NCBI GenBank assembly: GCA_002337525.1
Contig: DDGG01000030.1
Span: forward strand, 458-64,457
DNA: 64,000 bases
Direction of reading: 5' to 3'
Source of the DNA: Alphaproteobacteria bacterium UBA1908
Lineage (GTDB): Bacteria; Pseudomonadota; Alphaproteobacteria; Caedimonadales; UBA1908
The stretch's first letter is position 1; each line of letters starts with the position of its first letter. The notes under the pieces are model-generated. The model was not told where the DNA came from. It made no database searches and saw nothing but the letters and a program-made list of their open reading frames with translations. The position numbers were made by a program, and so were the translations under genes. This document shows, piece after piece, positions 55,935 through 64,000 of this stretch.

Positions 55935-56711
55935 TTATTCTTTAGTTAAATGTCTCAATTTCTGAATATCACCATTTACAATAAAAGGTGCAAGTTCAGT
56001 TATCCTGTGTATAGGAAGATTCCACCATTTAAGATCAAGTAAAAAACTAGTTACTTCAACGTCGAATCGATCTCGGAGGGGCGTGGCGGGATTTCCCCCT
56101 ACAACAGTATAAGGAGAAACATTCTTTGTGACAACAGACTCTGCGGCAACAATGGCTCCATCACCGATTTTAATGCCAGGCATGATAGTAGCTCCTTCTC
56201 CGAGCCAGACATCATTTCCTATAACTATATCGCCTTTGATAATACCAAATGTGGAAATTTTTTCCCAGGATTTTCCAAATGCTTGGAAAGGAAAAGTGGT
56301 AAATCCATCAAACTTGTGGTTGCCTCCATTCATTAAAAACTTAACTCCCTGACCAATCTGGCAAAATTTGCCCATGATCAGTTTGTCGCCAATTTCTTCA
56401 AAATGGTATAGAATATTTTTTTCAAAATTCTGAACGTTATCAGAGTCATAATAGTAAGTGTAGTCACCAATAACTATGTTATCACTATTATTTTCGAAAG
56501 ATAAATTTTTAAGAAAACATAAATTATAGTTGTCTTTTATAGGAAACAACGAATCAGGATCAGGAAATTCATCATTTTTCATAATAACGTCGACACTTTT
56601 TTCTTGAGTAACCAAGCCACTCTCACCTTCCAAGGCTGATGACCATAATGAGTATGATGTGAAGAATATTAAGAGCAGAGCTTTTCTCAACAGTGAAAAA
56701 TAAAAAGTCAT
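55935..56711 (-). CDS. Vat/CatB-type xenobiotic (streptogramin A-type) O-acetyltransferase, hexapeptide-repeat
   Basis: Conserved blocks are ILYH, GKFCQIG, MNGGNH, GNDVWLG, IGDGAIVAA, GGNPA and DLKWWNLP. The start at 56711 has a GGAGA SD but adds a hydrophobic N-terminus. An alternative start at 56582 gives the canonical ~215 aa. Confidence 0.75.
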   Translation of the reverse strand: MTFYFSLLRKALLLIFFTSYSLWSSALEGESGLVTQEKSVDVIMKNDEFPDPDSLFPIKDNYNLCFLKNLSFENNSDNIVIGDYTYYYDSDNVQNFEKNILYHFEEIGDKLIMGKFCQIGQGVKFLMNGGNHKFDGFTTFPFQAFGKSWEKISTFGIIKGDIVIGNDVWLGEGATIMPGIKIGDGAIVAAESVVTKNVSPYTVVGGNPATPLRDRFDVEVTSFLLDLKWWNLPIHRITELAPFIVNGDIQKLRHLTKE

Positions 56712-56856
56712 TGTAAGATCTCCATCAATAAGAAAAACAAAAGTTAGGTTGCCCAAATATAGACCTGTCTTAGAACAGGGAGTGTTCCTCAAAAAAAAAT
56801 TGAAATCGTAACCAGCTTTGCATAAAGATAGACACATAGCTAAGTTGTAGATCAGA

Positions 56857-61180: not shown

Positions 61181-61308
61181 TAAGATGCTCCTTCTTAGAG
61201 ATGAAGAGTTTTTGACCAGAATGTTTAACGTATTATAAAGATTACTTGCCCAGGAACCGTATGGCTGAAGACATGCCAGAGCAAGCAAGATAGTCAGAAC
61301 CTTCTGTA

Positions 61309-64000
61309 TCATGAAATAAACCTTTCTGAGATAATATTAAATCTATAAGGGGACGTCAAAGGAACAAAATGACCGTCATTTTGAAAAGTTTCAGAAATTG
61401 ATCCCGGAATTTCAAGCAACTCTTTTAAGTCGTCGTGATTAATAACGGGGTCTTTTTCTCCAAAAATAATCATACAAGAACTTTTGATTTTTCTAAGGGA
61501 GTTAATGACATTAAAAGATGAAAGTTGTTGATAATAGTGTTTTAAAATATCCAGGGAGCATCCCGCACCAATTAATTCTATTGCCTGTAAGTTCTGTTTT
61601 TTGAAAAATTGTTTCAGGTAGGAACCTTTATTTTCCAATTCATGACGAAGTTTAGGTGATTGAGAAAAAAGATCCTTTTCAAACTTGGACGCTGTATTGA
61701 TTAAAATAAAATTGGATATTTGATCCGAATATTTTTCTGCCAGTAATAGAGACAGGCATCCCCCTAGGGACCACCCAAAAACAGAAACTTTTTTAAAAGT
61801 TCCTGCTTTTAGGCAGAACTCTTTCCAAATGATGTCGGCAAGTTCCTGTAGGTCAAAATTAAAGTAAGGGGTCCCGGCATGGCCTGGATAATGTGGTATA
61901 AAAACCTGGTATCCTTTTTTTACAAAATATTGGATTTGGTGTTCCCAAATCTGAGAGCAGGTATTTAAGGGTGGTAATAATAAAATAATTTTTTCACAAG
62001 GAATCCCTTCAATCCGCCAGCCAAGTTGCCCTGCTTCATCTCTTTTGTTCTCAAATGTTGCAGAAGAATTGTTTGGTATTTGAGAGTTATCTATAAAATG
62101 TGCCAGATCACGAAGTGTCTCCTGATTGAAGATCGTATCAGGGGCAAGGGACCCAGTCTTATTCTTAAAGGGTTCAAGCAATTGGAGAGCAATCAATGAG
62201 TCTATGCCAAAAGACTTAATAGTTTCAGTCTCTGATATGTCATTGATAGAATAGCCAAGGATTTCTGAAAGCTTTTGCTTCAAAATATCAAGTGTTTGAG
62301 AGCTTTTTTCTAACTTTTCAGAAGCTTGAGAATCTACGGAAGGGGGCTCGTCCACCCAATAGCTTTTTCCTCTAAATGCATAAGGAGGCAGGTCGAGCAT
62401 TGAGGGTTTTTCTGGGAAGAGACTGTCACAGGAAAACTCTTTTCCTTCAATGGCTTTTTTTCCTAAAAGATAAACGTCATCATTGTTTGGTACTTCTTTG
62501 ATGAAGGGATTTGTTTCTACTACAAGATATTTTTGGAGTTGCTCTCTCAGGTTCTCAAGGGTAGAAGCAATAACAACAAGACGTTCTTTATGAATTTCGC
62601 GGCGACAACAAAGTGTATAACTAAGCTCGGTTATGTGTTTTTCTTCCAGGCTATCCACAAAAGGTAGAAAAGATTCTATATATGCCTTTAGGGATTTTTG
62701 GGAGTATGCAGAAAAAATAAATAAATGTTTGCCTTGTGTCTGATAGTGAGTGACTTTTTCATCGTAATGTTTAAGCACAAGATGAGAATTTGTTCCTCCA
62801 AATCCAAAGCTGCTGATACCAGCCAAAGGCTTTTCTGCTGGCCAGTCAATACTTTCGGTATTAACCTGAACTTTTGAAGGGTTAATTTGGGGATTGAGAG
62901 TGTGAAAATTAATTTGAGGTGGAATTTTTTTATTTTGTATCGCTTTTAGAACCTTAATAATGCTAGCAAGACCAGAAGCAACTAATGCATGACCAATATT
63001 TGCTTTACAAGTTCCGATATAACACTTTTCCTGATTTAAAACTTGCGTGACAGCATTGAATTCCAGAGGGTCTCCAATTCTTGTCCCTGTTCCGTGAGCT
63101 TCTATATAACCAACTTGTTCAGGAGATATTTTTTTTCCTTTATAAATAGATTGAATGAGTTCTTGCTGTGATTTTCCATTAGGAGACATGAGGCCGTTCG
63201 TAAAACCGTCATGGCTTGTTGAAATTGATTCTATTTGAGCATAGATTTTTCGATTTTGCTTTTTGGCAAGAGAGAGTCTTGTCAAAACAAGTCCTGCAAC
63301 AACTTCGGCGGGAATAAAACCATCGGCGCGTGTATCAAAAGAGTAACAATGACCTGTTTTGGATAAAATACCTGCAGAATCAGTCAGTCGAAAGATTTCT
63401 GGTGTTGAAAAAATACTGGAGGCGCCGACAAAGGCAAAATCACACTCATCTGCTTGTATGGCTTTTGTGGCCTGATCAATACAAACCAGAGACGAGGAAC
63501 AGGCTGTATCAATATTAAGGCATGGTCCTTTTAAGTTAAAAAAGTGAGAAATTCGGCCTGCTTGAACCGAAACAGCATTTCCAGTGAAACTGAAAGTATC
63601 ATAAGCCTGATTATTTTTGTCCAGGAGATAGCGATAATCTCCGGGGAGGGCTGTTGTAAAAACACCTCCTTTTGAACCTGCTAAAGATGTTTTTGTATAA
63701 CCACCATTTTCAAAAGCCTGCCATGCTATTTGAATCAATAGGCGCTGTTGTGGATCCATGAGGCGAGCTTCTTTTGGAGAAATATTAAAAAAATCGGCAT
63801 CAAAAGAATCAATATGGTCTAAAAATCCACCTTGGTAATCCGTTCCGTTCCATCTTTTGGCAGGCTTTATGCTGGAGACTCTATGGGTAAGGTTGTTCCA
63901 GAATTGATTAGTATCAGAGGCTCCCGGGAAAATACCTGCCATGCCCACGATAACGACAGGATCACTGGAGTTATCTGAAGAATCATTGTTATTAGGTCCA
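61309..64000 (-). CDS. Type I polyketide synthase module, KS - AT-less linker - ACP - thioesterase (5' end beyond window)
   Basis: KS motifs are VGMAGIFPGA, DTACSSSL (Cys codon ~63501..63499), EAHGTGT and NIGH. ACP: GIDSL (Ser ~62199..62197). TE: GWSLGG (Ser ~61770..61768) and DGH. The frame stays open upstream of the M at 63948 (..NNNDSSDNSSDPVVIVG). Confidence 0.85.
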   Translation of the reverse strand, partial: GPNNNDSSDNSSDPVVIVGMAGIFPGASDTNQFWNNLTHRVSSIKPAKRWNGTDYQGGFLDHIDSFDADFFNISPKEARLMDPQQRLLIQIAWQAFENGGYTKTSLAGSKGGVFTTALPGDYRYLLDKNNQAYDTFSFTGNAVSVQAGRISHFFNLKGPCLNIDTACSSSLVCIDQATKAIQADECDFAFVGASSIFSTPEIFRLTDSAGILSKTGHCYSFDTRADGFIPAEVVAGLVLTRLSLAKKQNRKIYAQIESISTSHDGFTNGLMSPNGKSQQELIQSIYKGKKISPEQVGYIEAHGTGTRIGDPLEFNAVTQVLNQEKCYIGTCKANIGHALVASGLASIIKVLKAIQNKKIPPQINFHTLNPQINPSKVQVNTESIDWPAEKPLAGISSFGFGGTNSHLVLKHYDEKVTHYQTQGKHLFIFSAYSQKSLKAYIESFLPFVDSLEEKHITELSYTLCCRREIHKERLVVIASTLENLREQLQKYLVVETNPFIKEVPNNDDVYLLGKKAIEGKEFSCDSLFPEKPSMLDLPPYAFRGKSYWVDEPPSVDSQASEKLEKSSQTLDILKQKLSEILGYSINDISETETIKSFGIDSLIALQLLEPFKNKTGSLAPDTIFNQETLRDLAHFIDNSQIPNNSSATFENKRDEAGQLGWRIEGIPCEKIILLLPPLNTCSQIWEHQIQYFVKKGYQVFIPHYPGHAGTPYFNFDLQELADIIWKEFCLKAGTFKKVSVFGWSLGGCLSLLLAEKYSDQISNFILINTASKFEKDLFSQSPKLRHELENKGSYLKQFFKKQNLQAIELIGAGCSLDILKHYYQQLSSFNVINSLRKIKSSCMIIFGEKDPVINHDDLKELLEIPGSISETFQNDGHFVPLTSPYRFNIISERFIS

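Follow-up and report, generated by a model that had tools for sequence, protein, structure and literature searches.

The probable downstream half of a lankacidin-type gene cluster, with ABC-F and Vat-like genes, in a marine alphaproteobacterium

The window studied here is a stretch of 64,000 nucleotides from Alphaproteobacteria bacterium UBA1908 (contig DDGG01000030.1), analysed over its full length. Its right-hand end carries six genes that encode, in transcription order, the terminal module of a polyketide synthase (PKS), an ABC-F ATPase, an isochorismatase-fold protein, a flavoenzyme, an Sfp-type 4'-phosphopantetheinyl transferase (PPTase) and a Vat-like acetyltransferase. Four of the six are counterparts of lkcG, lkcI, lkcH and lkcE, genes of the lankacidin (lkc) cluster of Streptomyces, and we regard the array as the likely 3' part of a cluster of that family. 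An earlier note on this DNA had described six co-directional, tightly packed minus-strand genes of these families; the list of open reading frames (ORFs), Pfam and NCBIfam bear this out. The junctions are also as it had given them: an ATGA overlap at the end of the PKS gene (61312/61309), a 20-nt overlap of the ABC-F and hydrolase genes, and a stop codon of the flavin adenine dinucleotide (FAD) enzyme at 57574 that abuts the PPTase start at 57573. Scans for promoter and terminator consensus sites returned counts no higher than in shuffled sequence and are uninformative on operon structure.

Table 1 Features of the cluster and of the adjoining low-GC region (window coordinates; aa stands for amino acids, KS for ketosynthase, ACP for acyl carrier protein, TE for thioesterase and PLD for phospholipase D).
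Feature	Position	Strand	Basis or remark
PKS, LkcG-like terminal module	61309-64000	-	Pfam KS, KAsynt_C_assoc, CurL-like linker, PP-binding, Abhydrolase_1
PKS domains	KS ~62902-63963; ACP ~62092-62286; TE ~61348-61989	-	TE of the alpha/beta-hydrolase type
ABC-F ATPase, LkcI-like, antibiotic-resistance (ARE) type, 543 aa	59549-61180	-	Shine-Dalgarno start; long 587-aa ORF to 61312
LkcH-like isochorismatase-fold protein, 185 aa	59011-59568 (alternative start 59601)	-	Pfam Isochorismatase, 62 bits
LkcE-like, putative FAD-dependent amide oxidase/Mannich macrocyclase, 472 aa	57574-58992	-	phmmer against PDB 6f32
Sfp-type 4'-phosphopantetheinyl transferase, 238 aa	56857-57573	-	Pfam ACPS (PF01648), 50.8 bits, and AASDHPPT_N (PF22624)
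Vat-like hexapeptide O-acetyltransferase	55935-56711 (M43 start, 258 aa); longest ORF to 56837	-	NCBIfam Vat, VatA
Predicted signal peptide or membrane anchor of the Vat-like protein (MTFYFSLLRKALLLIFFTSYSLWSSA)	56634-56711	-	Kyte-Doolittle 2.05 core; SSA small-x-small
PLD-like (HKD) nuclease fragment	55196-55489	-	PLDc_2; motif His lost
293-aa ORF with signal-peptide-like N-terminus	52613-53494	-	No Pfam or NCBIfam match
Low-GC spacer between tRNA-Lys and cluster	52095-55934	.	One 293-aa ORF, then a gene-poor stretch
tRNA-Lys (UUU)	52019-52094	+	ARAGORN and Rfam; at the junction of the 42% GC backbone and the 37.7% GC region

The PKS gene runs past the end of the window. An exact-sequence look-up of the flavoprotein led to the contig of origin, Tara Oceans ERZ907667 k127_45863 (65,166 bp; contig coordinates exceed those of the window by 779). 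On it the further PKS sequence expected by the earlier note is indeed found: the full gene encodes 982 residues in the order ACP, KS, linker, ACP and TE, its first 86 codons lying past the window end and its start 257 nt beyond it. The translation contains the motifs DTACSSS, HGTGT, GIDS and GWSLG. The protein has no acyltransferase (AT) domain, so that a trans-acting AT is needed. In pairwise BLASTP the protein is 33.5% identical to LkcG over 913 aa, and a PKS search recovers ACP-KS-ACP-TE orthologues in an alphaproteobacterial metagenome-assembled genome (MAG; 57% identity) and in Candidatus Cardinium hertigii (44%). Its domain set matches that of LkcG except for the added N-terminal ACP.

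The start of this gene overlaps (ATGGATAA) the stop of a preceding PKS ORF in the same direction, of which 45 C-terminal residues lie on the contig. That ORF ends in ...RLPTYPFDTKSYWFENAPDSKIMKEIANG, which is the post-KS linker of the preceding PKS protein, and its tail aligns with the C-termini of LkcF-like proteins from the lineage of the alphaproteobacterial MAG and from Cardinium. The presence of a post-KS linker of another PKS protein implies that the assembly line, of trans-AT type, continues upstream. No lipid or lipopolysaccharide synthase, of the kind the earlier note had raised as an alternative, is found in the upstream DNA: it belongs to an assembly-line PKS.

Among solved structures, the flavoprotein matches LkcE of Streptomyces rochei (PDB 6f32) with an E-value of 4.4e-118 over residues 4-434 (phmmer), and all other solved amine oxidases have E-values above 0.005. 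It is 43.5% identical to LkcE of S. griseofuscus, against about 28-30% for generic COG2907 flavoproteins. In lankacidin biosynthesis LkcE carries out an amide oxidation and an intramolecular Mannich reaction that forms the 17-membered ring, and its key residues by mutagenesis are E64 and R326 (PMC6162330). Both are present in the window protein, as E60 and R322, and are invariant in an alignment with four homologues. We also considered that the enzyme is a generic COG2907 flavoprotein as found in lipid (cfa-type) operons, and dropped this candidate on the strength of the LkcE match and the synteny.

The isochorismatase-fold protein is 35% identical to LkcH from end to end, 65% to its counterpart in the alphaproteobacterial MAG and 49% to that of Cardinium. 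LkcH-like proteins form a subgroup of their own within the fold: HKKLG and GAETH are invariant, and the position of the usual nucleophile Cys is variable. The previous isochorismatase-like and FAD amine-oxidase-like assignments are thus right as to fold family, and can be narrowed to homologues of LkcH and LkcE. The PPTase has orthologues at the same position in four related clusters: those of the alphaproteobacterial MAG, of Cardinium, and of loci L019 and L053.

Enzymes of the LkcE family also occur away from polyketide synthases. Flavoproteins of the family (40-48% identical), with no PKS nearby, are found at L012, L024, L033-L035 and L059-L064. At one of these loci, on the plasmid NZ_CP076707.1 of E. 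coli O170:H18 (4-19 kb; L012), the LkcE-like gene lies amid phzA/B, phzD-like, phzE-like, phzF and phzG-like genes, together with a stand-alone non-ribosomal peptide synthetase (NRPS) protein, a DAHP synthase and a ClbA-type PPTase. The phenazine-like genes are seen in this annotated plasmid only; the loci of Serratia, Pectobacterium and gut metagenomes have just an adenylation-type protein. These contexts suggest a second, uncharacterised use of LkcE chemistry outside PKS clusters.

The ABC-F protein has two ABC domains and no transmembrane domain. Its start at 61180 is preceded, 7 nt upstream of the ATG, by AAGGAG, and the gene caller run on the source contig likewise gives 543 aa. The NCBIfam model NF000355, 'ribosomal protection-like ABC-F', scores 446.8 bits against a cut-off of 380. 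All models of housekeeping paralogues fall short of theirs: 276 against 599 bits for EttA, 254 against 900 for Uup, 312 against 762 for the YbiT type and 180 against 917 for the YheS type. The ABC-Fs of the alphaproteobacterial MAG and of Cardinium, LkcI and LkcJ behave similarly. For the window protein no specific family cut-off is reached, only that of the generic model. Identity by BLASTP is 31% to LkcI over 554 aa and 30% to LkcJ.

The interdomain linker has the length typical of resistance proteins. From the H-loop of the first nucleotide-binding domain to the Walker A motif of the second we count 167 aa, compared with 171 in LkcI and 172-176 in Msr(A), Msr(E) and Lsa(E); the spacing is 140-143 aa in EttA, Uup, YbiT, YheS and also OptrA. 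Over aligned spans that contain the linker, the protein exceeds EttA by about 23 residues (query 142-527, EttA 148-510) and falls short of VmlR by about 8 (query 128-529, VmlR 94-503). A neighbour-joining (NJ) tree was built from 15 sequences (475 columns, 200 bootstraps), among them E. coli EttA, Uup, YbiT and YheS, the plasmid-borne OptrA, PoxtA, Msr(A), Msr(E) and Lsa(E) and a staphylococcal ARE-like protein, with many subfamilies outside the sample. In it the window and MAG proteins join LkcI (78%) and the Cardinium ABC-F joins LkcJ (69%), apart from the E. coli paralogues, with deep nodes at 3-32%. The cut-offs and the linker speak against a placement among the housekeeping factors, with which the earlier note had asked the protein to be compared; the tree, weak in its deep nodes, also sets it apart from the E. 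coli paralogues. With the ARE ABC-Fs (LkcI; TlrC, CarA, OleB and SrmB; Msr, Lsa, Vga and VmlR) the protein shares two ABC domains, an extended linker and the lack of a membrane domain, and with those of the producer type also its location inside an antibiotic gene cluster.

A rival role for the protein is that of a general translation factor, or of a translational regulator or signal transducer comparable to LmrC for lincomycin; the target of the product could then be something other than the ribosome. ARE-type ABC-Fs are able to serve as regulators that respond to antibiotics (PMC8546547, PMC12421871), and the best phmmer match among solved structures is EttA with 222 bits, ahead of VmlR (208) and PoxtA (194), although such raw scores do not discriminate. 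A regulator of the LmrC kind still works through antibiotic-stalled ribosomes, however, and known lankacidins bind the peptidyl-transferase centre (PMC5039520). Since the protein also lies under every housekeeping cut-off, has a linker of ARE length and groups with LkcI, we find this explanation improbable.

Ahead of the ABC-F start, the 132 nt at 61181-61312 of the minus strand form an in-frame ORF from the ATGA overlap, with a signal-peptide-like hydrophobic segment (MIQKVLTILLALACLQPYGSWAS). The same open frame precedes the ABC-F start in the alphaproteobacterial MAG (L004, 3031-3171). An exported ABC-F was therefore among the candidates; we rejected it as the leading explanation since a Shine-Dalgarno motif directly ahead of the internal ATG is conserved in nucleotide sequence (AGAAGGAG in the window, GAAGGA in the MAG), and a third orthologue, at L053, weakens it further with a quite different, basic extension. 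That extension (7417-7800) has about 120 aa, is rich in Ser, Thr and Asn, and is provided with its own AAGGAG and ATG. The conserved motif at the internal ATG argues that 61181-61312 is a non-coding leader. Separately, the LkcJ-like ABC-F of Cardinium has homologues, 46-50% identical, on plasmids of several Legionella species (e.g. NC_006365.1, 62005-63390) and of the plant pathogens Burkholderia gladioli and B. glumae, where they are annotated merely as 'ATP-binding cassette domain-containing protein'.

We located the canonical lkc cluster by tblastn of plasmids, on pSGRIFU1 of S. griseofuscus. Its genes run lkcA-B-C-D(AT)-E-F-G-H, followed by two ABC-F genes on the opposite strand and then by pqq genes; the annotation calls the G product 'alpha/beta fold hydrolase', the H product 'hydrolase' and the two others 'ABC-F family'. 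The order of the window, G, ABC-F, H, E, PPTase, recurs in the alphaproteobacterial MAG GCA_019749915.1, with 57-71% aa identity and GerE-type regulators after the PPTase, and in the JGI metagenome contig L053 of 31% GC, with 44-55% identity (49% for the ABC-F). The order G, H, E, PPTase is found in Cardinium hertigii and in a MAG labelled Candidatus Pelagibacter.

In Cardinium cHgTN10, a nematode endosymbiont, the locus can be read further (CP029619.1, 258552-281683). It encodes a 3840-aa NRPS/PKS, a major facilitator superfamily (MFS) transporter, a 2344-aa LkcF-like PKS, LkcG-, LkcH- and LkcE-like proteins and a PPTase, with an LkcJ-like ABC-F on the opposite strand: this looks like a complete lankacidin-type cluster. 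None of the papers found in a search of the Cardinium literature mentions polyketide, and a literature search returned no paper that links Cardinium, Holosporales or marine MAGs with lankacidin-type clusters.

Searching the GTDB species genomes with an LkcE alignment gave 24 loci; the PKS query by itself gave no relative. Full clusters of the lkcA-B-C-D-E-(H)-F-G type are present in many Streptomyces, in Amycolatopsis, in a Corynebacterium MAG and a Melainabacteria MAG, and in Hahella, Pseudomonas and Haematospirillum. A further metagenomic locus, L063, combines LkcE-like and LkcH-like genes with an ABC-F of the Cardinium type. ABC-F genes thus accompany lkc-like genes in at least five lineages: Streptomyces, the window together with the alphaproteobacterial MAG, L053, Cardinium and L063. 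As a side observation, JAIEPE010000039.1, labelled 'Alphaproteobacteria', and JALEGO010000676.1, labelled 'Flavobacteriales', hold copies of one cluster that match at 98.97% across 5.5 kb of DNA. Such a near-identical cluster in MAGs of two phyla means that at least one of the bin assignments is wrong.

What the window shares with the Streptomyces clusters (pSLA2-L of S. rochei and pSGRIFU1 of S. griseofuscus) is a trans-AT PKS/NRPS system with an LkcG-type module ending in an alpha/beta-hydrolase TE, LkcH, LkcE with the same catalytic Glu and Arg, and ABC-F genes adjoining lkcH. The arrangement differs, E, F, G, H plus oppositely oriented I and J in Streptomyces as against G, ABC-F, H, E, PPTase here, and so does the gene content: two ABC-Fs with pqq genes after them in the former, a single LkcI-like ABC-F, a dedicated PPTase, a Vat-like gene and no pqq in the latter. 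The window's last module has the extra N-terminal ACP, its LkcE a C-terminal extension of about 38 aa; protein identities are only 31-44%, and the bearer is not an actinomycete but an alphaproteobacterium with a GC content near 42%. Chejuenolides of Hahella come from an lkc-like cluster (general background; see also PMC9881209). The Hahella cluster, of this chejuenolide type, and those of Pseudomonas and Haematospirillum resemble the window as LkcE-dependent assembly lines in Proteobacteria whose LkcE has the same C-terminal extension; their order is A-B-C-D-E-H-F-G, whereas the window's is shared with the endosymbiont and MAG versions. A further comparison is the unannotated lkc-like cluster of Cardinium cHgTN10, an intracellular symbiont with the order F, G (ACP-KS-ACP-TE), H, E, PPTase, 44-56% identity and the same docking-type tail on its LkcF-like protein. 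It differs in its phylum, Bacteroidota, in having no Vat-like gene, and in its ABC-F, which is LkcJ-like, on the opposite strand and 25% identical.

On these grounds, namely the LkcE homology, the counterparts of LkcG, LkcH and LkcI, the conserved gene order and the LkcF-like tail, we think it likely that the operon is the downstream (3') half of a lankacidin-family trans-AT PKS/NRPS cluster, set in a low-GC segment beside a tRNA-Lys gene. The data establish homology, the conservation of catalytic residues and a gene order shared across phyla; from these we infer a product of the lankacidin class that would act on the ribosome. The same target had been proposed in the earlier note from the resistance-type genes, and it receives independent support from the homology to LkcE, LkcH and LkcG and from the known target of the class: the site that lankacidin C occupies lies in the peptidyl-transferase centre and resembles that of streptogramin A in location (PMC5039520).

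Several points weigh against this assignment. The contig holds the 3' part of the cluster only, and equivalents of LkcA to LkcD, the trans-AT included, were not found in the rest of the window. An N-terminal ACP that is lacking in LkcG is present in the LkcG-like protein, and Y182 of LkcE is replaced by Leu, at a position that is non-essential in that the Y182F variant is active (PMC6162330). The ABC-F is only 31% identical to LkcI, and deeper nodes of its tree are weak (32%). Enzymes of the LkcE family in Serratia, in Pectobacterium and on an E. coli plasmid adjoin a stand-alone NRPS adenylation-type protein; as the family thus occurs outside lkc contexts, the enzyme by itself is no proof of a lankacidin-type product, and the argument rests on synteny. 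Finally, no Vat-like gene is present in the lkc-like clusters of the alphaproteobacterial MAG, L053, Cardinium or Streptomyces, and export of an acetyl-CoA-dependent enzyme, discussed below, is hard to reconcile with cytoplasmic tailoring or resistance. Given the extra ACP, the low identities and the Leu at position 182, the product may be a relative of lankacidin rather than lankacidin itself.

By analogy with Streptomyces, the pathway could work as follows. The LkcF-like PKS would hand the chain to the LkcG-like last module (ACP-KS-ACP-TE), which a trans-AT encoded elsewhere would load. This module would perform the last extension, and its alpha/beta-hydrolase TE would release the chain, which in lankacidin gives a delta-lactone. 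The LkcE-like flavoenzyme would oxidise the amide to an iminium and close the carbocycle by an intramolecular Mannich reaction, with the LkcH-like protein presumably acting on the LkcE intermediate; in Streptomyces, LkcH is a candidate for acetyl handling. Carrier domains would be primed by the Sfp-type PPTase. The LkcI-like ABC-F would protect the producer by binding its ribosomes and displacing the product from the peptidyl-transferase centre. In the least certain step, the Vat-like enzyme might O-acetylate the product, or a macrocycle related to it, at a hydroxyl group.

The Vat-like protein would start at M43, whose ATG (56711) has GGAG 8 nt upstream; the Vat domain itself begins at M86 (56582). 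Vat is the best NCBIfam family (NF000311, Vat_ABCDEFH) with 262.7 bits, below the cut-off of 300, as compared with 158 bits for CatB. Against PDB entries the protein scores 243 bits with VatA (4hur; E ~2e-71 to 5e-71), 211 with VatD and 148 with CatB. Of the two families between which the earlier note had placed it, it is accordingly Vat-like rather than CatB-like, and the catalytic His82 is kept. Its neighbours in an NJ tree of 49 sequences are VatA and VatD, at 60%, and four proteins from the environment, at 52%, within a clade supported at 95%.

Using the residue roles described for VatD with virginiamycin M1 (bioRxiv 10.1101/2025.01.31.635826), we find the catalytic H82 conserved and, for the acetyl-CoA subsite, Y37, D39, Y52 and W121, with the changes S68Q, P71Q and K124E. 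Among the streptogramin A contacts N14 and P90 are kept, and the others read N92Q, L93A, P103T, L108 deleted and P109I: about half of the VatD residues that contact virginiamycin M1 differ, and the 103-109 loop is three residues shorter. Vat(A) and Vat(D) thus share with the protein the left-handed beta-helix of xenobiotic acetyltransferases, matched over the whole domain, His82 and most of the acetyl-CoA subsite. The clinical enzymes lack its signal-peptide-like segment and linker, and it lies in a biosynthetic cluster, not on a resistance plasmid.

If translation begins at M43, the N-terminal segment is, to judge from its sequence, probably a signal peptide, and the protein is apparently exported. 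Its four closest relatives in a search of 5.8 billion proteins (P0128-P0131) have similar Sec-like N-termini, with Lys/Arg, a hydrophobic core of Kyte-Doolittle score 2.4-3.0 and AYA, ANA or IYA; ordinary Vat-like proteins of about 205 aa, of which there are hundreds, have no signal-peptide-like extension. One of the four, P0129 (55% identical), adjoins on contig L013 an LkcB/LkcC-like PKS (37% identical to LkcC over 1770 aa), an LkcD-like AT (42% to LkcD) and a GerE regulator with 46-51% identity to the one encoded beside the PPTase in the alphaproteobacterial MAG cluster. P0131 also adjoins a GerE gene. The readable contexts of the four are L013, L014, L051 and L052; only L013 is lkc-like, and L051 shows just a GerE-type regulator, weakly similar to the cluster-linked one. 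As the Vat-like gene recurs beside lkc-like genes on L013 yet is absent from the other clusters examined, it appears to be a recurrent, non-essential accessory.

For the enzyme's function three readings remain: inactivation of the product for protection of the producer or its host, O-acetyl transfer in biosynthesis, or cargo unrelated to the cluster. The earlier note had taken both resistance-type genes for self-resistance determinants. For the ABC-F, which is ARE-like and LkcI-like, this remains the probable role; for the Vat-like enzyme, which is below the family cut-off, has an altered pocket, probably bears a signal peptide and is not conserved among the clusters, self-resistance is one option of several.

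A tailoring role would make it the O-acetyltransferase that installs the transient acetyl group of the lankacidin pathway (at C-7 of LC-KA05) instead of a resistance enzyme. LkcE acts on an acetylated intermediate, for which PMC6162330 assigns no acetyl-transfer enzyme, and a literature search returned no paper that identifies a lankacidin O-acetyltransferase; the signal-peptide subgroup could be this missing enzyme. The position of the gene, closing the operon directly after the PPTase, fits such a role, as do the related gene beside LkcC- and LkcD-like genes on L013 and a pocket in which about half the streptogramin contacts differ from VatD, consistent with another macrocyclic substrate. 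The step is not one that the family requires, however, since the gene is absent from every other lkc-like cluster examined, the closest orthologous one included, and the predicted signal peptide would take the enzyme away from cytoplasmic acetyl-CoA and from the assembly line. We therefore see tailoring as a possibility on the doubtful side.

It is unlikely, too, that the gene is mere island cargo, a general xenobiotic or streptogramin-type acetyltransferase that became a neighbour by chance. Thousands of environmental homologues at 53-60% identity, including some in Rickettsiaceae MAGs and in cyanobacteria without PKS context, speak for it, together with a gap of 142 nt and a terminator-like hairpin (56779-56764) between the PPTase and Vat-like genes. 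Yet the gene shares strand and composition with the cluster, and its nearest relatives are the signal-peptide subgroup, one of whose four readable contexts, L013, is lkc-like.

The predicted signal peptide sits comfortably with none of these roles unless the enzyme acts beyond the bacterial cytoplasm. A speculative scheme, to which we give little credence, would accommodate it: a Holosporales-like, protist-associated producer of a lankacidin-class compound with LkcI-type self-protection that also exports, by the Sec route, a Vat-type enzyme acetylating the compound outside the bacterium, for example in the host cytosol where acetyl-CoA is present. If so, the enzyme would spare the mitochondrial ribosomes of the host or tune the activity of the compound, and it would be the first secreted member of the Vat family and a device of the producer for protecting its host.

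The cluster lies in DNA that differs from its surroundings. GC content is 37.7% over 52095-64000 and 42.2% over 1-52000, no backbone stretch of equal length falls below 40.1%, and GC at third codon positions is about 28-32% in cluster genes as against 32-40% in eight backbone genes. The AT-richness reported before is hence correct in direction and overstated in size, the spot counts having suggested 27-37% against 52%. The drop begins directly after the tRNA-Lys gene, and the region has the appearance of a foreign-looking DNA island. A search of the window for a direct repeat of the 3' end of the tRNA found none, which places the far boundary of any island outside the window.

Between the tRNA gene and the cluster, the 2.4 kb at 53500-55930 are gene-poor and hold short ORFs only, and the PLD-like fragment looks like pseudogene debris at an island edge. 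A tblastx comparison of the 52.1-55.9 kb spacer with the flanks of related clusters gave no matches. The ORF at 52613-53494 has cluster mates solely from the same Tara station.

The whole locus could then be the decaying remnant of a horizontally acquired cluster that makes no product: the adjacent 53.5-55.9 kb are almost without long ORFs and contain the pseudogene fragment, and the remainder of the cluster is not visible on the contig. All six ORFs are nevertheless intact, with their catalytic motifs. Upstream of the PKS start the contig continues for 130 nt and stops inside repetitive PKS sequence, where a break is expected of short-read assembly; three related contigs (L002, L005 and L006) end at the same PKS position. 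We judge decay to have a slim chance of being right.

Along the backbone lie common Gram-negative housekeeping genes, namely holB-like, PBP5, RlpA-like, MurA, XseA, AcrAB, NhaA, Def, Fmt, TruA, PrmA and RluD-like genes. The best named relatives of its MurA are those of Candidatus Nucleicultrix amoebiphila (68%), Caedimonas, Candidatus Paracaedibacter symbiosus and Holosporales MAGs, the named organisms being alphaproteobacterial endosymbionts of amoebae or ciliates. Protein names in the source assembly point to Tara station 18, surface water, <0.22 um fraction. MurA, as a single marker, supports an uncultured marine Holosporales-like alphaproteobacterium as the carrier, plausibly a symbiont of a protist. 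Of the host-associated alphaproteobacterium postulated earlier, the class is thereby supported, and the host-associated lifestyle is plausible from the same marker.

Within the backbone, GC content dips at 14001-15000 (31%), over a LysR-type regulator gene (14417-15325), and at 20001-21000 (35%), over a 223-aa ORF without family (20145-20816). Further backbone ORFs without a Pfam family lie at 9922-11310 (462 aa), 18804-20105 (433 aa) and 15876-16454 (192 aa).

Lankacidin clusters, LkcE and cluster-borne ABC-Fs were already known. New here is a rearranged, horizontally mobile lkc-type cluster whose bearer is a putative symbiont of protists and which has gained a PPTase and a Vat-like gene with a predicted signal peptide. 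An operon that combined a PKS with resistance-type genes can now be placed in the lankacidin family, and this gives it a predicted, testable product class and target, the peptidyl-transferase centre. The rearranged G, ABC-F, H, E, PPTase version moves among unrelated, mostly uncultured and partly intracellular bacteria: a Holosporales-like alphaproteobacterium, Cardinium of the Bacteroidota and low-GC metagenomic organisms.

The most unusual element is the Vat-like subgroup with signal peptides, which, if real, calls for an explanation of acetyl-CoA-dependent drug modification outside the cytoplasm. ABC-F and Vat-type genes stand here in or beside a producer cluster for a compound that would bind where streptogramin A binds. 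The finding bears on the origins of the clinical ARE-type ABC-F and Vat-type resistance genes, and also on defensive symbiosis, which for this organism we offer as a conjecture.

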